Below, in pieces: positions 6,947 through 54,758 of a DNA stretch of 64,000 nucleotides. This DNA is from an uncultured delta proteobacterium (GTDB lineage: Bacteria; Desulfobacterota; Binatia; Binatales; Binataceae), in contig CAWCDG010000004.1 of the NCBI GenBank assembly GCA_963794325.1, forward strand, positions 1,376,001 through 1,440,000, given 5' to 3'. Position 1 is the first letter of the stretch. Every line of letters starts with the position of its first letter. The position numbers and the translations under genes were made by a program. The notes under the pieces are model-generated. The model had not been told where the DNA came from and ran no database searches. It was given only the letters and a program-made list of their open reading frames with translations.

Positions 6947-7019
6947 GGGGCAGTAGCTCAGCTGGGAGAGCACTACGTTCGCAACGTAGGGGTCGAGGGT
7001 TCAAATCCCTTCTGCTCCA
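6947..7019 (+). tRNA. tRNA-Ala(CGC), CCA not encoded
   Basis: GGGGCAGTAGCTCAGCTGGGAGAGC, CTACG-TTCGCAA-CGTAG anticodon arm, GGTTCAAATCC T-arm, G3:U70 pair. Confidence 0.95.
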
Positions 7020-46692: not shown

Positions 46693-47589
46693 CTACTGGA
46701 GGATTTTCTTGAGGCTAGTCGGCAGGGGGCTTTGGAAATTCATTGAGGTGCCGGAGACTGGGTGGCGGAAGGTTAGTTCGCATGAGTGGAGTGCCAGGCG
46801 GCCGGCGGGGTCGGTCGACGCGCCGTATTTGCGATCGCCGACTACAGGATGACCGAAGGCGGATAGCTGGACGCGGATCTGGTTTTTGCGGCCGGTTTCC
46901 AGGGTCAACTCGAGCATCGCGTTGTCGCGGCCTTTTCGCAGGACGCGGTAGTGAGTGATGGCCAGTTCGCCGCCGCGATCGACGCGATGCATCCTGAGTG
47001 ACTTGCTCTCGACGAGATTGTCGCGGAGGGTGCCGTCGGCCTTCGAGGGGATGCCTTCGACGACGGCCAGGTACTTCTTGGTGACGCTTTTCCAGTTCTC
47101 TTGAAGGGCAGCCTGTACTGCGTGGCTTCTTGCGAAGAGCATCAGGCCGGAGGTTTCGCGATCGAGTCGATGCACGATGAAGGCTTGCTGCGACGGCGAG
47201 CCGGTGACCGCCTTCAGATGGTCGTTGAGGATTCGATGCGCGGTGCGTTCTTTCTCGGCCTCCGAGCCCATTGAAAGAAGACCCGCCGCTTTGTCGACCA
47301 CGACGAGGTCATCGTCGAGATGGATGATTTTCAAGCCCTGGCGATCGAGCGATGGCGCAGGAACCTGCTTACCCGTCACAATCGTCACGACGTCGCCCGG
47401 TTGCAACTGCGTGTCGTGCTTGACGGTAGTCATTCGCGAGACGGTTACGGCGCGGAAGCGTAAGAGATCCTTGGCCGCTTTGCGCGAGAGTCCCAGCGGA
47501 AGAGTCATCAGATAGGGCAGCAGCTCGCATCGCGACGAGACGCTGAATTTGTGGTCACGCGCCGGCATTGCGGTAGTATGGTCGCCCAC
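46693..47589 (-). CDS. RluA-family pseudouridine synthase
   Basis: VVVDKAAGLLS, VHRLDRETSGL, KKYLAVVEG, AITHY, LETGRKNQIRV, GD.KYG, LALH. Confidence 0.93.
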   Translation of the reverse strand: MGDHTTAMPARDHKFSVSSRCELLPYLMTLPLGLSRKAAKDLLRFRAVTVSRMTTVKHDTQLQPGDVVTIVTGKQVPAPSLDRQGLKIIHLDDDLVVVDKAAGLLSMGSEAEKERTAHRILNDHLKAVTGSPSQQAFIVHRLDRETSGLMLFARSHAVQAALQENWKSVTKKYLAVVEGIPSKADGTLRDNLVESKSLRMHRVDRGGELAITHYRVLRKGRDNAMLELTLETGRKNQIRVQLSAFGHPVVGDRKYGASTDPAGRLALHSCELTFRHPVSGTSMNFQSPLPTSLKKILQ

Positions 47590-47630
47590 AATCGATGAAG
47601 CGGCAAGAACAACACGATCACTTAATTGGA

Positions 47631-47680
47631 TGTGAAACCGCCGTGGGTTTCATGCTTTCCTGGGCAGGGTAACCCTGCAC
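47631..47680. repeat. double-hairpin element, copy 2
   Basis: TGTGAAACC-GCCGTG-GGTTTCATG and GCAGGG-TAA-CCCTGC; covaries with 29228-29280. Confidence 0.65.
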
Positions 47681-47779
47681 TTTAGAATTAAGGAAGTGAA
47701 TAGTACACTGAGTAATCGACAAATACTCACTTGATTCGTTCTGGTGGGAACCTTGTTGAGACTATTCGGATAATTCAAA

Positions 47780-47809
47780 TTGACACTCCGCAATTACTAA
47801 CCATATTAT
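47780..47809 (+). promoter_or_regulatory. sigma70-like promoter upstream of leader motif copy 1
   Basis: TTGACA (47780-85), 18 bp, TATTAT (47804-09). Confidence 0.6.
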
Positions 47810-47814
47810 CCAAT

Positions 47815-47906
47815 AGCCGGGATCGATATAGATTTGAGTCCGGCTTTGATCCAGCCCGACGGTGGCCTTTCCGCTCGCCTTTGACCACGGTTCGCTAGAC
47901 CATCGT
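47815..47906 (+). ncRNA. candidate structured cis-regulatory leader RNA, copy 1
   Basis: about 10 differences from 50815-50907, last 40 nt identical; stem changes in hairpin 1 preserve pairing. Confidence 0.6.
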
Positions 47907-47942
47907 AGATAGTGTGCGTTTCAAGGCTGGAGGAGGTTCTTC

Positions 47943-48266
47943 ATGGAATTCTCTGCTAGACGTGGCGTCTCGCGAGTCAGCATTTTGTGCGGATTCGTGA
48001 CCATGGATCTTTACTGGCTGTACCTGATTTGTATATCGCACGTGATGAATCCAGTGAGTGTTTTTGTCGTGGACCTGACCGGGCGGCATTTGCAGCCGGG
48101 GCAGATCGGAAGTCTCACGACGACGTTGGCCTGGAGCGAAGTGCGGTTAGCGGTCGTAGCGTCTTTGATCGTATTCGGGCTGGCCACGTTGATCGCGGAT
48201 GCGGGCATGAAGATGTTTGCGAGCCCGGATTCCGACCGTCTCTCATTGGCAACGACCATCGCATGA
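47943..48266 (+). CDS. hypothetical membrane protein
   Basis: strong GGAGGAGG RBS 6 nt before ATG; two hydrophobic segments. Confidence 0.55.
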   Translation: MEFSARRGVSRVSILCGFVTMDLYWLYLICISHVMNPVSVFVVDLTGRHLQPGQIGSLTTTLAWSEVRLAVVASLIVFGLATLIADAGMKMFASPDSDRLSLATTIA

Positions 48267-48326
48267 GCGAGCACGAATCCACGGGGATTTGATCATTCTT
48301 AACGAAAATCGGACTCGAGAAAAAAA

Positions 48327-48551
48327 ATGAAACCTATAGTAATGATTGGCGCGATCGTCGCGCTGCTTGGGCTTCTGGCGCTTGCTTTGCCGGAGTTCAC
48401 CACCAATCAGACGAAGAACGTTGCAACGCTGGGCGATCTCAAGATCCAGGCGAACGAGCAGACCTCGCATGTAATCCCGCCTATTCTCGGAGGCGCTGCG
48501 TTGATCGTGGGGTTGGTTATGGTGACGGGCGGCCTTTACCAGAAACGCTAG
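48327..48551 (+). CDS. small membrane protein (DUF3185-like)
   Basis: TM - FTT.....A.LG.LKI...E.....IPP.LGG.AL..G - TM. Confidence 0.7.
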   Translation: MKPIVMIGAIVALLGLLALALPEFTTNQTKNVATLGDLKIQANEQTSHVIPPILGGAALIVGLVMVTGGLYQKR

Positions 48552-48627
48552 TCGTCAGTCGCAGCCGAAATACTCACTTGACTACTCAGTCGAACATTCA
48601 CGGCCAATTGTTGACTCGAGAACAACC

Positions 48628-50460
48628 GTGGAAAAACTCTCGACAGCCCCGCTAATTGCAGAGCACGAGCAGGATGAACGCCCGAGCGGCCTGAGTTCCG
48701 CGGGACCGGTTGTCGCGATAATCCTCGCGACGGTGGTGCTCTCTTACGCCAAAGAAATTTTGATGCCGTTGACGATGGCTGCCCTGCTGGCGGTCATCTT
48801 CAGTCCGATTGCCACGCGGCTCGATCGTTTTGTGGGGAGCTTCGTCAGCGCCGCGCTGGTGGTGGTGACTACGGTTACGATTGTTGCTGGGATTGGATAT
48901 TTCGTAACGGTCGAGCTTACCTCGGTCGCCGTGCAGGTCACCGACTATACCGACAATATCGCCACCAAGCTGACCGCATTGAAGGGTAGTACGCCCGAGT
49001 GGATGCTGCGGGTGCAGGACGGGATCAAAGACGTCGAGCAGCAGATCAACGAAATGACGCCGCGAGCGAACCGCGCGAAACCGGCCAAAGTGGTTCAGGT
49101 ACCGGCGGTTCAGTCAGACCTTGAGCAGGCGGTGAAGCCGGCCGTCCCAATATTGTCGGGACTGTTTGAAGGGCTGCTGATCGTAGTGCTGATGTTCTTT
49201 CTGCTGTATGGCAGAAATGACTTGCGCGATCGGCTGGTGCGGCTTGCGGCACGCGGCCGGATTACGCTTTCGGCCGAGGCGATTGGGACTGCGGGCGAAG
49301 CGGTGGGTCATTACCTGTTGCTATTCGCTCTGACTAATCTCGGATACGGAGTAGCTATCGGACTGACTATCTGGGCGATTGGGTTGCCGAACCCGATTCT
49401 GTGGGGAGCGCTGGCGGCGCTCTTTCGTTTCGTGCCCTACGTTGGGGTTCCGATTGCCGCTCTACTCCCGATGTGTGTGGCCTTCGCGGTTTTCCCCGGA
49501 TGGAGCAAGTCGGTCGAGGTGTTCGCCGCATTTGTCATTTTCGATCAAATAGTGAGCTACCTGGTCGAGCCTTTCCTGATCGGCCGCGGAGTTGGATTGT
49601 CGCCGCTGGGCCTGTTGTTCTCCGCGATGTTCTGGGGATGGCTGTGGGGGCTTCCGGGACTGCTGCTCGCCACCTCATTGACCGCATGCCTTAAGGTCGC
49701 TGGAGACTATATTCCGGCACTCGGCTTTTTCGCCGTGCTGTTTGGAGATGATAGCGCCCGCGAGGACTATCACGACTACTACCGCAGCCTGCTCGAGCTC
49801 GATCAGACGAGTGCGCGCACTATCGCGGTCAGGTACTGCGACAAAAATGGGCTCGAGCCGACCTTCGACGACGTACTGGTCCCGGCGGTCGTTCTGGCCG
49901 GCGAGGAGCGCTTCGAAAATCATATCAGCGAGGAGAATCAGAAGCTGATTTTCGACACGACTGTCGCGCTGGTGAAGGAACTTGGCGATCGGTTCAACAA
50001 ACCCCGGTACAGAGGCCGGCTCCGAATCGTGGGTATCGTGCCGCCCGGCGAGGTTCACAGCCTGGGGCTGCTGATGCTGCTGGAACTGCTCCGGCGGACG
50101 GGAATCGCGGCAAATTTTTTCGGCATGGATAAATCGCCGGCAGAAATTTGCGCCTTTGTGAATCAATACGGACCTGACATGGTTTTTGTTTCCTGCACCA
50201 CGACAGAATGTATGCCCGCCGCGGTCGAACTGGTGCGCGTGCTGGTCGCGCAGTCGCCGCACCTGACCATCATCGGCGGCGGAGCGGCCGCGCTGGTGCA
50301 TCGCGCGGAACTGCTCGAGGCTGGCGCCACGGAAATCTGCGGCAGCAGGGGCGAAGTACGACACGCGGTACGACTGTACGCACTCAGACGCTCGGTTTCG
50401 CGGTCATCGCAGATCGGTGTCGCCCGCCCTGGAGTCGGCGCTCAGACTACAAATAGCTAG
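48628..50460 (+). CDS. AI-2E family transporter with C-terminal cobalamin-binding-like domain
   Basis: LRDRL.RL, YL....L.N...G, GLPN..LWG.LA...RFVPYVG, EP.L.G..VGLSP, FWGWLWG..GLLLA; C-terminus PPGEVHSLG...SCT...IIGGG. Confidence 0.88.
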   Translation: MEKLSTAPLIAEHEQDERPSGLSSAGPVVAIILATVVLSYAKEILMPLTMAALLAVIFSPIATRLDRFVGSFVSAALVVVTTVTIVAGIGYFVTVELTSVAVQVTDYTDNIATKLTALKGSTPEWMLRVQDGIKDVEQQINEMTPRANRAKPAKVVQVPAVQSDLEQAVKPAVPILSGLFEGLLIVVLMFFLLYGRNDLRDRLVRLAARGRITLSAEAIGTAGEAVGHYLLLFALTNLGYGVAIGLTIWAIGLPNPILWGALAALFRFVPYVGVPIAALLPMCVAFAVFPGWSKSVEVFAAFVIFDQIVSYLVEPFLIGRGVGLSPLGLLFSAMFWGWLWGLPGLLLATSLTACLKVAGDYIPALGFFAVLFGDDSAREDYHDYYRSLLELDQTSARTIAVRYCDKNGLEPTFDDVLVPAVVLAGEERFENHISEENQKLIFDTTVALVKELGDRFNKPRYRGRLRIVGIVPPGEVHSLGLLMLLELLRRTGIAANFFGMDKSPAEICAFVNQYGPDMVFVSCTTTECMPAAVELVRVLVAQSPHLTIIGGGAAALVHRAELLEAGATEICGSRGEVRHAVRLYALRRSVSRSSQIGVARPGVGAQTTNS

Positions 50461-50591
50461 TTGTTTCAGTATTAAGGCTTTTTCAGTATTAAGGCCGCGC
50501 TCCGTTGTCGCGCGCGGACTGAGAGAGCAATCGCGCGCTCTCGAGGGAATGGCGACCGGATTTAGGTCGGGAGGTTTAGGTCATTAACGGA

Positions 50592-50630
50592 AACCTAACC
50601 CCTAACCCCTTCCCGAGCGGGAAGGGGAAC
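50592..50630. repeat. 39-bp REP-like element, copy 3
   Basis: identical to 22824-22862 and 46582-46620. Confidence 0.9.
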
Positions 50631-50814
50631 AAGATTAGGAGGAGAACCCTTCCCCTGGAACGGGAACCGGAATGGATAGTCGATAAATGACTAATGGATT
50701 GAGTATGTATATTGTGCCTCCGATTAGTATTTGTATTGTTCCTCCAAGCACCTTAACTAGTACTCACATAGTAAATCTAGTCGCATTCTGAAATTAGGGT
50801 GATTACTATCTACT

Positions 50815-50907
50815 TGTCGGAATCGATATACGGTTCGAGTCCGACTCTGATCCAGCCCGACAGTGGTCTTTCCGCTCGCCTTTGACCACGGTTCGCTAGA
50901 CCATCGT
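50815..50907 (+). ncRNA. candidate structured cis-regulatory leader RNA, copy 2
   Basis: homologous to 47815-47906; preceded by TACTAT (50804-09) at the same spacing as the -10 box of copy 1. Confidence 0.6.
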
Positions 50908-50975
50908 CAAATCGACATTACCAAGGCTCGAGGAGGTCCACGCGAGACGTCACAGTCTCACGGAATTTTCCGCCC

Positions 50976-52250
50976 ATGAAGATAAACTTGAAAAATAAAT
51001 TGAGGAAGACGATTGCCCTGTCGGGCGCGATCGTGGCGTTTTCGATCGCGGCGCCGTCGTTCGCGCAATACGATAACGGCCCCGGCCCTGGCTATGACAG
51101 TCCCGGCTACGGCAGCCCAGACTACAACAGCGCGGGCTACAACGACGAAGGCTACAACAACCCAGGCTACCAAGGCGCCGGCTACTACGGCCCGGGATAT
51201 TACGGTGGACCCGGACAAGAGGGATGGGGCGCCTACGATAGTGGTCGCACCTGGCGAGGCGCGCGATGGTGGCATCGGCACGACATCATGTGGTTCTACC
51301 GGCATCATCCGGAATGGGCCGTGATGGACGCGTTGTGGCAAAACCAGGATGGCGACTACGACAATGACAACGTCTGGCACGACGCCTACTGGTGGCATCA
51401 GAACAACCCGGATTACTTCTACGCCAATCATCCAAACTGGATTTCATGGGATCCGAGCTGGCGTAACTCGGACGGCGCGTACGACGGGCAGCACAACTGG
51501 CATTATGGCCAGTGGTGGTACAACCAGAATCCCAACTGGGTTTCCGCCAATCATCCCAACTGGCTCAGCGAGCATCGCAACTGGGCGAGTCATACTGAAG
51601 TGCAAGACCATCGGGCCGTGATGCGGACCGAGAACGAGGGTAATGAGCGCTCTCGCCAGCAGGCGGCAGTTCAGCAGAACCGCGTGAATGAAGGCGCGGC
51701 AATTAATCAGCGCAATGAGGCGACTCGTAACGAGCAGGCCTCACGTGAGCAGCAGAACCAGCAAAATCGCGCGAATGAGAGGGCGGCGACCAATCAGCGC
51801 AACGAGCAGACTCGTGTGAATGATCGGGCGGCGACCAATCAGCGCAATGAGCAGACGCGCATGAATGAGCGAGCCGCAACCAATCAGCGCAACGACGCGA
51901 ATCGCAACGAGCAGGCGTCGCGTGAGCAGCGGCAAAATCAGGCTACGCGGAACGAGCAGCAAGCTAATCGCAACCAGCAGCAGGCGACCCACAATCAGGA
52001 GCGCGCTGCGCAGAACGAGCAGCGGGCGACTCGCAACGAGCAGCAGGCGACGCATCAGCAGCAGGAACGTCCGCAGCAGGCGCAGCGTCAGCAGCAGGAG
52101 CGTCCGCAGCAAGCGCAGCATCAGCAGCAGGAACGTCCGCAGCAGGCTCAGCATCAGGAGCACCAGGCCTCGCATCAGCAGCAGTCGTCGAACCATCAGG
52201 GCGGTGGACATCAGGGCGGCGAGGGCGCAGTCCGCGAAGCAAAGAAATAG
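50976..52250 (+). CDS. secreted repeat protein (Gly/Tyr repeats, 3x 41-aa Trp/His repeats, Gln/Arg/Asn-rich tail)
   Basis: signal peptide ..APSFA-Q; repeats start at 51225, 51348 and 51471. Confidence 0.8.
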   Translation: MKINLKNKLRKTIALSGAIVAFSIAAPSFAQYDNGPGPGYDSPGYGSPDYNSAGYNDEGYNNPGYQGAGYYGPGYYGGPGQEGWGAYDSGRTWRGARWWHRHDIMWFYRHHPEWAVMDALWQNQDGDYDNDNVWHDAYWWHQNNPDYFYANHPNWISWDPSWRNSDGAYDGQHNWHYGQWWYNQNPNWVSANHPNWLSEHRNWASHTEVQDHRAVMRTENEGNERSRQQAAVQQNRVNEGAAINQRNEATRNEQASREQQNQQNRANERAATNQRNEQTRVNDRAATNQRNEQTRMNERAATNQRNDANRNEQASREQRQNQATRNEQQANRNQQQATHNQERAAQNEQRATRNEQQATHQQQERPQQAQRQQQERPQQAQHQQQERPQQAQHQEHQASHQQQSSNHQGGGHQGGEGAVREAKK

Positions 52251-52340: not shown

Positions 52341-52631
52341 ATGAATTCAATCCAACGAATTGCTATCAGTGTCGTAGGCGTTGCGGCCTTGGCTTGGGTT
52401 GCCGGATGCGGCACCAGCACCAAGGAAGTCGATTCCACCACTTATGTTCCCGCCGCCGCGCCGGCTCAGGTCGTCGTGCAGGCTCCGCCGGTAGTAGTCA
52501 CACCTCCGACTACCACCACCAGCACCTCGAGCGACCGGTCGAGCAATTCAACTGACTCAGGCAGCGCAGGCACAGTGGATAGCTCGAGTTCCCATCACAG
52601 CGAATCCACCAGCGTGACTCCAAGCAACTAA
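52341..52631 (+). CDS. small Ser/Thr-rich lipoprotein
   Basis: GGGAG RBS, lipobox VAGC, low-complexity tail. Confidence 0.7.
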   Translation: MNSIQRIAISVVGVAALAWVAGCGTSTKEVDSTTYVPAAAPAQVVVQAPPVVVTPPTTTTSTSSDRSSNSTDSGSAGTVDSSSSHHSESTSVTPSN

Positions 52632-52655
52632 TCCGCAGCTCGGGAGAATTGCGTG

Positions 52656-53057
52656 ATGCGAAACAAAGCCAATCGAAAAGTAAGAGTCGTGCGAGCACTC
52701 GCGATCGCTCTGGTGATCGGCACCGGACTGCTTGCCTCCAATGCGCGCTCCGAGCCGGCTACTACCGACTCTTCGAACTCTGTGTCCCACGAGAACGACA
52801 GCGTGAACGTCAAGTCGGAGCATCGATACAATTCGCCGGCTGAACGCGCGAACGACGCCCTGCTGATCACCGAGGTCAAGAGCGCGCTTGCCCATGACGG
52901 AGTCAGCGACGGTTATCCGGTTGCTGTCGATTGCGATCACGGCAAGATCCTGTTGAGCGGTGTAGTCAAGTCGGCCCGGGACGCAAAGCATGCCGGCGAT
53001 ATTGCGGCAGCGGCAGAAGGCGTCACCGGGGTGAACGATCAATTAACGTGGCATTAG
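52656..53057 (+). CDS. BON (OsmY-like) domain protein
   Basis: signal peptide; NDALLITEVKSAL......VAVD...G.I.LSG.V.S.....A..IA....GV.GV.DQL. Confidence 0.85.
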   Translation: MRNKANRKVRVVRALAIALVIGTGLLASNARSEPATTDSSNSVSHENDSVNVKSEHRYNSPAERANDALLITEVKSALAHDGVSDGYPVAVDCDHGKILLSGVVKSARDAKHAGDIAAAAEGVTGVNDQLTWH

Positions 53058-53093
53058 CAGGGCGCCAACCTAGCCAGGGAGCCAACGAAACCG

Positions 53094-53246
53094 ATGTTAT
53101 TGATTCTGATCATACTACTGATTCTATTCGCCGGCGGCGGCGGTTACCGAACCTATCATCACGGCTCCAGAGATCCGGGCGGCTTGCTGATGCTGATACT
53201 CATGGTCGTGTTGATTGTATGGCTAATCAACGGCGGGCTGGTCTGA
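53094..53246 (+). CDS. small membrane protein, DUF3309-like (50 aa; not in ORF track)
   Basis: MLLILIILLILFAGGGGYRTYHHGSRDPGGLLMLILMVVLIVWLINGGLV. Confidence 0.7.
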   Translation: MLLILIILLILFAGGGGYRTYHHGSRDPGGLLMLILMVVLIVWLINGGLV

Positions 53247-53272
53247 CAGATGAAAGTAGATAGGAGAACACC

Positions 53273-53422
53273 ATGTTACTATTAATCATTGTCATAGTTT
53301 TGTTGTTCGGCGGCGGCGGCGGCTACTACGGCTATACCAACTATGGCGCCACCGGAGGCTTAGTGCCTCTGCTGCTCGTGGTGTTAGTGGTCTGGCTGCT
53401 AATCGGTCGCGGCGGTATTTGA
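53273..53422 (+). CDS. small membrane protein, DUF3309-like (49 aa; not in ORF track)
   Basis: AGGAG RBS; MLLLIIVIVLLFGGGGGYYGYTNYGATGGLVPLLLVVLVVWLLIGRGGI. Confidence 0.78.
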   Translation: MLLLIIVIVLLFGGGGGYYGYTNYGATGGLVPLLLVVLVVWLLIGRGGI

Positions 53423-53547
53423 CGATTGTCGGGCATCAGGTAGACGCCGGCGTTGCTCGGTGCCCGCCATCTTTTTCCGCGTTCAATTGTTCAACTGAGT
53501 AAACAAACAGCCGTACATCGTAACTCGCGAGCTCTGAGGTAATTGAG

Positions 53548-53787
53548 ATGACATTGGAAGATACCGCAAATTCTACCGTCCGCAACGCAATGGATCAGGG
53601 CCGCCAAGCGGCAGACAAAGCCAGCCAGGCAATGAAAGACGGCTACGATGCGGCGCAGCAATACGTCAAGGATAAGGGATTTGAGATGGACCTGCGCGAG
53701 CTCGTGCGTCGCGAGCCGTGGTTCGCAATCGCAGCCGCGTTTGCGGTGGGCTACGTCGTTGCGCAGATCGTTCGGCGCGTCTCCTGA
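53548..53787 (+). CDS. ElaB/YqjD/DUF883-like tail-anchored protein
   Basis: charged helix, then VRREPWFAIAAAFAVGYVVA..RR. Confidence 0.75.
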   Translation: MTLEDTANSTVRNAMDQGRQAADKASQAMKDGYDAAQQYVKDKGFEMDLRELVRREPWFAIAAAFAVGYVVAQIVRRVS

Positions 53788-53801
53788 GCGGGTCGCAGGC
53801 G

Positions 53802-54143
53802 GTGAATAACTCAGCAGATGCCACCTTGGCCGATAACTATGAGCGGCGGCGCCGGCGCGATCGGAACATCGGCGAATATGTAAGAGAAGAACCGTTGACC
53901 TCGCTGGCCATAGCCGGTGGCGTCGGATTCATTCTCGGCGGAGGCGCCAACAGCCGCATCGGGCTCGCACTCATATCTATAGCAGCGCGAATCGCGATGC
54001 GCGGAGCCGCCACCACCTTCATCATGGGCCTGGTCACCGGTAATCACGACAGCCAAAGAGCGGCTCACTCAACAACCCGCGGCGGAAGCTATCGCAATGG
54101 ACACTATGACAACGCAAGAACAGATCACCGCGATTCAGACTGA
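53802..54143 (+). CDS. DUF883-like membrane-anchored hypothetical protein
   Basis: YVREEPLTSLAIAGGVGFILGGG. Confidence 0.6.
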   Translation: MNNSADATLADNYERRRRRDRNIGEYVREEPLTSLAIAGGVGFILGGGANSRIGLALISIAARIAMRGAATTFIMGLVTGNHDSQRAAHSTTRGGSYRNGHYDNARTDHRDSD

Positions 54144-54390
54144 GCGCGACGACGCGCGGCAAAACCTGCGCGACACGTTGACCGAGGTCAACGACAAAGT
54201 TGAACGCACCGAAGACGGGATGCGTCCCGACCACGTCATCGAGAGTCATCCGGTCGGAGCCTCGCTGATCGCTGGAGCGTTAGGCTTTCTGTTCGGATCG
54301 ATCGTGACCAGCCGCGGCGCCGGTCCGATCGTGATCGCAGCATTGCTCGGCGTCGCTCTCTCAAAACACGGCTCAAACGACGAGAGTTGA
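54097..54390 (+). CDS. DUF3618/DUF883-like protein
   Basis: I..ERDDARQNL.DTL.E...K....RP...IESHPVGASLIAGALGFL. Confidence 0.6.
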   Translation: MDTMTTQEQITAIQTERDDARQNLRDTLTEVNDKVERTEDGMRPDHVIESHPVGASLIAGALGFLFGSIVTSRGAGPIVIAALLGVALSKHGSNDES

Positions 54391-54407
54391 AGCCGCAGGC
54401 TGATCGC

Positions 54408-54758
54408 ATGACAGAAAAACAGCCGCATCACGCTAACGGTTCGCCGGAGACCTTGCAGGATTGGCCGACGCTGATGGGCCGGGCAGTGGACGACGTCACG
54501 CGCATCCTGCAGTCCGAGGCTCACATGCTGGAGACCAGCATGAGCGCGGCGCTAGCTGCGCGACTAGCCGATGCAACCGCCAAACTCACTGTACTAGCAG
54601 TGATGCTTTGCGGCGGAGTATGCATGCTGTGCGCCGGAATACTGCTGATCCATGAATGGCTGCCGCTATGGCAGGCCTTCGGACTCTCGGGCGCAATTAT
54701 CCTGATAATCGGCGTCGCGATTTACGCAATCGGGAGACCTGCCGGCGACACTGCCTGA
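54408..54758 (+). CDS. holin-like / YqjE-like two-TM membrane protein
   Basis: L..AVDDVTRILQSEA helix, two TM segments, LPLWQAF. Confidence 0.6.
   Translation: MTEKQPHHANGSPETLQDWPTLMGRAVDDVTRILQSEAHMLETSMSAALAARLADATAKLTVLAVMLCGGVCMLCAGILLIHEWLPLWQAFGLSGAIILIIGVAIYAIGRPAGDTA

Follow-up and report, generated by a model that had tools for sequence, protein, structure and literature searches.

The stretch analysed here, called the window throughout, comprises 64,000 nucleotides (nt) from an uncultured delta proteobacterium of the family Binataceae (assembly GCA_963794325.1, contig CAWCDG010000004.1, positions 1,376,001 to 1,440,000, read on the forward strand). It holds two copies of a predicted leader RNA, each in front of a gene whose product belongs to no known family. 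An earlier note on this DNA had pointed to two look-alike stretches of ~92 nt, and both were found at window positions 47815-47906 and 50815-50907. Aligned with each other, they show 10 differences, including a 1-nt indel, and their final 40 nt are identical. A BLAST search of the genome matched copy 1 to copy 2 with 85% identity over 120 nt (E 2.7e-29), a likeness that exceeds chance by far. The ~92-nt unit is thus real, but the conserved unit proved longer, ~122 nt, since it reaches a block that is conserved again past a divergent spacer, AAGGCU(G/C)GAGGAGG (AAGGCTGGAGGAGG at 47923-47936, AAGGCTCGAGGAGG at 50923-50936), and that contains the Shine-Dalgarno (SD) sequence. The two copies and the genes behind them comprise the following features.

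47780..47809, + strand: promoter-like site of copy 1, TTGACA (47780-47785), 18-nt spacer, TATTAT (47804-47809); 11/12 matches
47815..47942, + strand: leader copy 1, starting at the predicted +1 and ending just before the ATG (BLAST, profile, covariance model 131.6 bits)
47816..47844, + strand: P1, the 5'-terminal hairpin, copy 1 (folding and both-side changes in pairs)
47847..47856, + strand: block A (UGAUCCAGCC), 5' strand of the weakly supported lower stem P2a, copy 1
47862..47888, + strand: P2c hairpin, copy 1 (GUGGCC, 15-nt loop, GACCAC)
47868-47882, + strand: P2c loop, copy 1, CUUUCCGCUCGCCUU(U), carrying the anti-SD run and GCCUU
47894..47902, + strand: block C (GCUAGACCA), 3' strand of P2a, copy 1
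47905..47922, + strand: spacer, copy 1, free sequence (36% identity against 78-85% in the blocks)
47923..47936, + strand: block D, copy 1, AAGGC plus GAGGAGG (SD)
47943..48266, + strand: gene behind copy 1, a 107-amino-acid (aa) predicted membrane protein of no known family
50804..50809, + strand: -10-like hexamer TACTAT, copy 2
50815..50975, + strand: leader copy 2 (BLAST, profile, covariance model 147.8 bits)
50816..50845, + strand: P1, copy 2 (folding and pair changes)
50848..50903, + strand: P2, copy 2 (block A 50848-50857, P2c 50863-50889, loop 50869-50883, block C 50895-50903)
50923..50936, + strand: block D, copy 2 (AAGGCUCGAGGAGG)
50941..50962, + strand: extra hairpin between block D and the ATG, copy 2 (GAGAC/GUCUC core 50944-50959)
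50976..52250, + strand: gene behind copy 2, a 424-aa secreted Gly/Tyr-rich protein of no known family

Other details of the note also held for the two copies. The -10-like hexamers (TATTAT, 47804-47809; TACTAT, 50804-50809) each end 5 nt before the start of the look-alike stretch, the three pairing-preserving differences in hairpin 1 are real, and block D of copy 2 is separated from the ATG (50976) by 39 nt that include a GAGAC/GTCTC hairpin (50944-50959).

The duplication proved to be part of a larger family: the number of copies in the genome is not two, BLAST recovering 4 and a profile built from 34 copies recovering 9 full ones, spread over 5 contigs, and a truncated one (P1 and block A only). 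With a covariance model, the leader was found in 42 of 47 genomes of the genus (1-13 matches each, ~207 in total) and, at the level of the family, in 89 of 151 genomes and 17 of 29 genera (~361 matches). The 151 genomes were an even draw of the order, all of which fell in one family; they include the unpublished G087, G088 and G024, without which the tally is 86 of 148 genomes and 16 of 29 genera, G087 being the sole match in its genus; their sequences entered no other part of the analysis. Among 106 genomes that represent 18 other families of the class, none yielded the leader, and 150 genomes from ~75 families of the phylum gave one weak match (E 4.6e-4, 21 bits). A pattern scan of named genome records listed 80 loci, 15 of which the model confirmed with E no higher than 2.4e-26; two more gave partial matches of ~20 bits and the others none.

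Tallies of downstream genes, identity and promoters are given below for 99 distinct copies from 45 genomes, which were the top-scoring matches plus hand-picked copies from other genera rather than a random sample; counts for pairs of model positions use up to 111 copies fetched from the ~360 family matches. Leaders are often clustered within a few kb. In other species of the genus, too, the two copies seen in the window stand together, separated by no more than a few kb (both members in L021), so the likeness of the two copies is old and maintained by selection rather than recent. A truncated leader (L140 97-250; G000:C5:36815) contains only P1 and UUGAUCCAGC, followed by unrelated sequence with an SD, and precedes a 65-aa DUF3309 protein; P1 may be a separable module.

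Conservation follows the parts of the leader. Mean pairwise identity was 78% for P1, 81% for the linker with block A, 85% for P2c with its loop, 84% for block C and 83% for block D, compared with 36% for the spacer and 32% for the 40 nt upstream; the length of the spacer was nearly constant among the aligned copies displayed. Beyond block D, unrelated secreted products share the N-terminus MG(H/R)(S/P)RFxPxRN together with the underlying bases over the first 10-12 codons (e.g. L003 1609-1645, L077, L099, L127), so that the conserved unit seems to reach a few codons into the genes. In front of the genes for Gly/Tyr-rich proteins, block D stands ~52 nt before the ATG with a conserved hairpin between them (22 aligned orthologous leaders). 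This extra hairpin is restricted to leaders of this type; its 5 pairs are kept in all 22, with one-sided changes. That block D is kept despite ~52 nt to the ATG argues that it serves an RNA fold and not the ribosome alone.

Position and orientation relative to the downstream gene were likewise constant. A same-strand open reading frame (ORF) starts within ~90 nt of block D for 98 of the 99 copies, several of these ORFs being short or doubtful, and 55 copies place the ATG 16-24 nt downstream of AAGGC, which puts it 5-9 nt past GGAGG. Random orientation, which the note had named as the mark of a mobile repeat, was not seen: the sampled copies share their direction with the downstream gene, and shared position and orientation argue against such a repeat. 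Upstream, 77 of 99 copies have a TAnnnT hexamer, located 8-16 nt ahead of the first G of P1 (in 59 exactly at -12, the distance seen in copy 1), and 42 of 99 have TTGAC at -39 to -35. This placement agrees with the note in putting the predicted start at a plausible +1, with P1 at the 5' end. Most copies in front of the short peptide gene described below are preceded by a second, different conserved upstream region, so the promoter region that accompanies the leader is of more than one kind. In these 60 nt (e.g. L116, L089, L093, L004), the architecture RAACCAAAT..N..TGGCYTTTGCAT..ATGTAGTGT stands in place of the TTGACA type and may be recognised by another sigma factor or by a regulator. Sigma-54 was considered for the TGGC..TTGCA element ahead of the peptide genes and discarded, since the spacing is wrong.

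Both hairpins, P1 and P2c, covary in the multi-copy alignment. P1 is a two-part hairpin with both-side changes at 6 of 6 outer and 3 of 4 inner pairs. In P2c (GYGGYC/GRCCRC), model pair 52-76 is UA in 84, CG in 24 and UG in 2 of 111 copies, and pairs 51-77 and 55-73 show single A-U and C-G replacements. The lower stem P2a joins UCCAGC of block A with GCUAGA of block C: pair 42-85 is AU in 101, GU in 5 and GC in 3 copies, pair 44-83 is CG in 101, UG in 8 and UA in 1, and the violations are one A.C (42-85 in L289) and one C.U. When P2c was forced, RNAfold drew the combined P2a and P2c stem for copy 2. Across the whole model 92.4% of cells pair, versus 28-45% with slid partners. Both-side changes were found at 18 pairs versus 9.0 +/- 1.5 in shuffles, with 0 of 500 shuffles reaching 18, these counts being inflated by related copies. 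Many G.U pairs are compatible only with the given strand. At model positions 55/73 of P2c (window 47866/47884 and 50867/50885) a C.A mismatch is the commonest combination (70/111; U-A 32/111) and A73 is nearly fixed (106/111); a C.A kept between G-C pairs could be a protonatable A+.C wobble.

The 111-copy alignment also upheld the note's claim that the loop is complementary to the SD block. GCCUU pairs with AAGGC in 99.1% of cells and is invariant, and CUUCC/GGAGG and its neighbours pair in 90.6% of cells with one-sided changes only, UG being the commonest pair at 58-123. In unconstrained RNAfold predictions of the 99 copies, the GCCUU/AAGGC helix had a mean probability of 0.46-0.57 and P2c of 0.16-0.23. 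The switch proposed in the note, in which one strand would pair with either the proximal GACCAC or the distal GACCAUCGU, did not hold: where position 52 changes from U to C, the proximal partner follows from A to G and the distal one stays A, so that pairing of GUGGYC with the distal GACCA makes pair 52-91 a C.A in 25 of 111 copies. The distal GA(CCA) appears better explained as part of P2a, pairing with UGAUCCAGCC. A helix between blocks A and D (CCAGCC/GGCUKG) was also rejected (42-116 is A.C in 35/110 and 41-117 is almost never paired).

Given the geometry of H-type pseudoknots, a 15-nt loop is unable to pair 11 or more bases while its stem stays closed. From this geometry, rather than by computation, we infer two exclusive states: a complete P2, or a fold in which AAGGC and the SD are paired by the loop together with the 5' strand of P2c. 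Forcing either P2c or the loop-block D pairing gave folds with a mean difference of 3.2 kcal/mol (standard deviation 6.1); the SD-blocking fold was the lower one in 79 of 109 copies, with an identical result at 20 C. A CCUC, CUCC or CUUCC run is found within codons 2-7 in 37 of the 55 normally spaced leaders versus 9% of random windows, and local pairing of the SD/AUG region in a hairpin may offer a third alternative.

These data suggest, at roughly even odds (about 50%), a conserved cis-acting leader with a translational switch between two folds; the leader probably controls translation of the downstream genes. It would be a 5' leader RNA of ~120-160 nt transcribed from its own promoter, with P1 placed at the very 5' end of the mRNA, where it probably also protects that end. 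P1 is followed by a long irregular hairpin, the weakly supported lower stem P2a of which joins UGAUCCAGCC with GCUAGACCA, and the upper stem P2c GYGGYC with GRCCRC, around a 15-nt loop carrying the anti-SD run CUUCC and GCCUU. After the spacer of free sequence comes AAGGC..GAGGAGG, the putative ribosome-binding site in most copies. The sequences show the family with its conservation, placement and direction, and the stems P1, P2c and, weakly, P2a; the transcription start, the loop-SD pairing, the switching and its trigger are inferred from them. In the first fold, the loop and the 5' strand of P2c would pair with AAGGC and the SD and block initiation; in the second, the complete P2 hairpin would form and withhold the anti-SD. 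The choice between them would fall to a factor that stabilises P2, whether a small ligand, an ion, a protein that binds RNA or some physical cue, and the element would set lineage-specific envelope and stress genes under one post-transcriptional control. The reading put forward in the note is thus supported as regards the leader RNA, its covarying hairpins and the loop-SD complementarity, but not as regards the distal alternative pairing.

Several results weigh against this switch. The loop-SD pairing shows no compensatory change, its basis being complementarity and energy alone, and the second anti-SD-like run inside the coding regions could block the SD by itself. In the genes for Gly/Tyr-rich proteins, the SD-like block is too distant from the ATG for a normal SD. 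The alignment was fitted to a model that already held P1 and P2c, toward which the stem counts lean, and P2a appears weakly, with few informative cells (3 GC, 1 UA) and some violations. Folded singly, the two copies have ordinary energies (z versus shuffles -0.18 for copy 1, -1.20 for copy 2). In the mutual information the sole strong canonical signal is 52-76; the other top pairs are non-canonical and track paralogue subfamilies. Finally, occurrence in a single family, with metabolic or transport genes lacking downstream, is unlike what metabolite riboswitches usually show.

Known RNAs offered no match. As the note had supposed, the leader belongs to no known Rfam family: a scan of the window against Rfam 15 at the gathering threshold returned only two tRNAs elsewhere (2305-2393, - strand; 6947-7019, + strand), and neither a scan of 47000-51500 at E up to 10 nor one of 20 further copies at E up to 1 gave anything on the leaders. 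A tRNA-like P1 was considered, copy 2 holding GGUUCGAGUCC and then ...UCCA, and was rejected: GGAUUCGAG or GGAAUCGAG occurs most often, and the tRNA model has no match there. No intrinsic terminator-like site was found within either leader copy, and no leader peptide was seen by eye in the commonest sequence. A literature search gave no paper linking Binatota with riboswitches; the part of the literature on the taxon that was surveyed, by titles and abstract beginnings, is ecological or genomic. No RNA run is listed for the stretch in public archives, the 5 matching runs being recorded as DNA, with their kind guessed. Judged from its sequences, the leader is a real, undescribed and family-restricted RNA motif under strong selection, and it makes a good candidate for an orphan riboswitch or a protein-bound leader.

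The genes behind the leaders were tallied by motif, as single-linkage BLAST clustering lumped the low-complexity Gly/Tyr proteins into a cluster of 43. A very hydrophobic peptide of 21-23 aa (MYLPISLGGIVVIVLVLWLLGVV type) follows 25 of the 99 leaders; codon positions 1 and 2 of its gene are more conserved than position 3, where identity is 49%. Secreted Gly/Tyr-rich proteins of ~300-420 aa, the type of window copy 2, follow 24, membrane proteins of ~100-160 aa, the type of copy 1, follow 9, and secreted proteins with an FSNNYPWFN motif follow 6. Gly-zipper lipoproteins (at least 4), a 125-aa protein that has a WGDYD..WW motif in common with the Gly/Tyr-rich protein (3), and single or double cases of OmpA-C, BON, RRM, AurF-like, Thivi_2564 and His/Gly-rich proteins were also found. 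Pfam matched 11 of 40 representative products at E up to 0.01, and NCBIfam 1 of 17. Gly-zipper, OmpA, RRM, BON and DUF3309 proteins are no enzymes or carriers of the kind expected behind a metabolite-responsive leader, and the lone enzyme among the 40 representatives is the AurF-like di-iron protein. Judged from domain names, these genes resemble a stress regulon of the envelope, osmotic or desiccation kind. Of the downstream genes guessed in the note, stress and envelope genes and one RRM gene were borne out, but no Csp gene was seen behind the 99 sampled leaders.

Five RRM genes were found in the genome itself, and the one RRM gene that follows a sampled leader (1/99; L126) lies in a relative. 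Two of the five Gly-rich RRM genes share a different long conserved leader (..TTGYCTTTCTCT..GAGCTTCCCGGCAAA..AGGAG; L260 ~1240-1500, G000:C4, RRM gene at 84589, and L262, G000:C7, RRM gene at 193436), which may represent a second undescribed leader family.

Readings of the element differ in what would set the fold, and in whether there is one to set. A true riboswitch, with the P2 junction and loop as aptamer for a stress-tied small molecule or ion (second messenger, cation, pH) whose binding would fix P2 and free or block the SD, is possible if doubtful. It would account for junction and loop bases (UGAUCCAGCC, CUCGCCUU, GCUAGACCA) that are nearly invariant across 17 genera, for many copies per genome before unrelated genes, for competing folds close in predicted mean energy and for a pseudoknot-like architecture involving the SD; a conserved structured domain with covarying stems, general to riboswitches, is present in P1, P2c and weakly P2a. 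However, no Rfam class matches, the element occurs in one family (0/106 genomes of the 18 sister families), and the downstream genes, almost none of which encodes an enzyme or transporter, give no hint of a ligand. A similarly tentative proposal is that a lineage-specific RNA-binding protein, for which one of the Gly-rich RRM proteins of the genome would be a candidate, binds the conserved unpaired blocks or the repeated GACCA motif and so lowers or raises translation of the regulon. The family-restricted distribution fits co-evolution with such a factor, what is conserved is sequence rather than structure, and the 5 RRM genes of the genome and the leader-bearing RRM gene of the relative point the same way; yet only 1 of the 99 sampled leaders precedes an RRM gene, and the RRM genes of the genome itself carry a different leader. 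Leaders bound by CsrA/RsmA resemble this one in that its commonest P1 loop reads AUAGGA, with a second GGA in the SD, but the P1-loop GGA is absent from both window copies, and a CsrA-bound leader was dismissed as no CsrA gene (PF02599) was matched in the genome, which is 85% complete.

Less likely than either is a constitutive cassette, that is, a stabilising 5' hairpin joined to a leader that enhances translation or acts as a standby, reused without any switching in front of envelope genes with high expression. The hairpin lies exactly at the predicted +1, as in known mRNA stabilisers such as the 5' untranslated region (UTR) of ompA; a P1-only variant precedes the DUF3309 gene (L140), and the leader is paired with at least two kinds of upstream region, but a stabiliser needs neither ~90 further near-invariant bases nor an SD-complementary loop. 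An RNA thermometer or another direct physical sensor, of temperature or osmolarity, whose SD-blocking helix melts or forms with conditions, is improbable. U-rich and G.U-rich partner sequences of the SD, the frequent local SD/AUG hairpin with a CCUC run in the coding region, and a regulon resembling a desiccation, osmotic or cold set (BON, Gly-zipper, DUF3309, RRM) would suit it. Against it stand the missing Rfam match to ROSE and other thermometer families, the lack of any chaperone or Csp gene seen behind the 99 sampled leaders, a predicted energy gap that is equal at 20 and 37 C, and the degree of sequence conservation, as known thermometers conserve structure and not ~100 bases of sequence. 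A thermometer of the ROSE or fourU type would call for a heat-shock or virulence gene behind a short imperfect local SD hairpin, but no chaperone gene was seen and the pairing here is long-range. We give almost no credence to a mobile or selfish repeat (of the repetitive extragenic palindrome or miniature inverted-repeat transposable element kind) or a recent duplication devoid of its own function: the copies are multiple and at times clustered, but those sampled keep their orientation, their distance to the gene start and the -10 hexamer within unrelated flanks, and the window pair recurs in other species of the genus.

The nearest parallels to the proposed switch are SAM-II, preQ1-II and guanidine-III, riboswitches that block the SD by way of a pseudoknot. 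The Binataceae leader shares with them a hairpin loop complementary to the ribosome-binding site, conserved unpaired bases and a presumed translational action with no terminator. In contrast to them, it has no Rfam match, precedes stress and envelope rather than metabolic genes and occurs in one family; its larger size comes with a lower stem and an additional hairpin at the 5' end. The cspA-type 5' UTRs with their 'cold box' are likewise long leaders starting at +1 and common to paralogous or co-regulated stress genes, with alternative folds and control of translation and stability; however, there is no sequence likeness, and no csp gene was seen behind the sampled leaders. ROSE (RF00435) and fourU elements similarly pair the SD in the 5' UTR of stress genes by a U- and G.U-rich helix, whereas the Binataceae leader was unmatched in the scans above (E up to 10 for 47000-51500, up to 1 for the 20 copies), is far more conserved in sequence, uses long-range pairing and precedes no heat-shock genes. 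The 25 leaders before the hydrophobic peptide recall type I toxin mRNAs (hok, tisB, zorO), in which such a peptide lies behind a folded, SD-occluding leader, but the same Binataceae leader also precedes large secreted proteins. A simple genome search found no antisense partner; the loop has a single exact 13-nt antisense match, which falls within a coding sequence, and a trans-acting antisense RNA was rejected.

Around the two copies, the copy-1 gene is followed by a 74-aa ORF and then an AI-2E-type transporter gene. Its 610-aa product (48628-50460) combines an AI-2E-family transporter domain with a C-terminal B12-binding domain, a combination of which we know of no earlier example. After it, at 50606-50627, lies a perfect GC-rich hairpin (CCCCTTCCC GAGC GGGAAGGGG) that has no T run and may be the end of the copy-1 operon. 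The copy-2 gene is directly followed, at 52341-54758, by genes for a 96-aa lipoprotein, a BON protein, two DUF3309-like ORFs of 49-50 aa, two DUF883/ElaB-like ORFs and a 123-aa membrane protein, of which BON alone was confirmed by Pfam, the DUF3309 and DUF883/ElaB likenesses being judged by eye.

Binataceae are abundant soil bacteria known from metagenome-assembled genomes only, and we know of nothing on gene regulation in the family. The leader gives a set of mostly unannotated small envelope and stress proteins their first functional context, as one putative regulon, and with several hundred natural variants the motif is ready for covariation analysis and for in vitro probing that needs no culture. 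Conceivably, though this is doubtful, it represents a new sensory RNA class, a riboswitch for a stress signal (second messenger, ion or protons) that would govern a lineage-specific envelope or desiccation regulon including the 23-aa membrane peptide, with the C.A mismatch of P2c and the invariant junction bases as part of the sensor. If a ligand or protein partner were found, the leader would constitute a new class of riboregulator linked to stress and not to metabolism.

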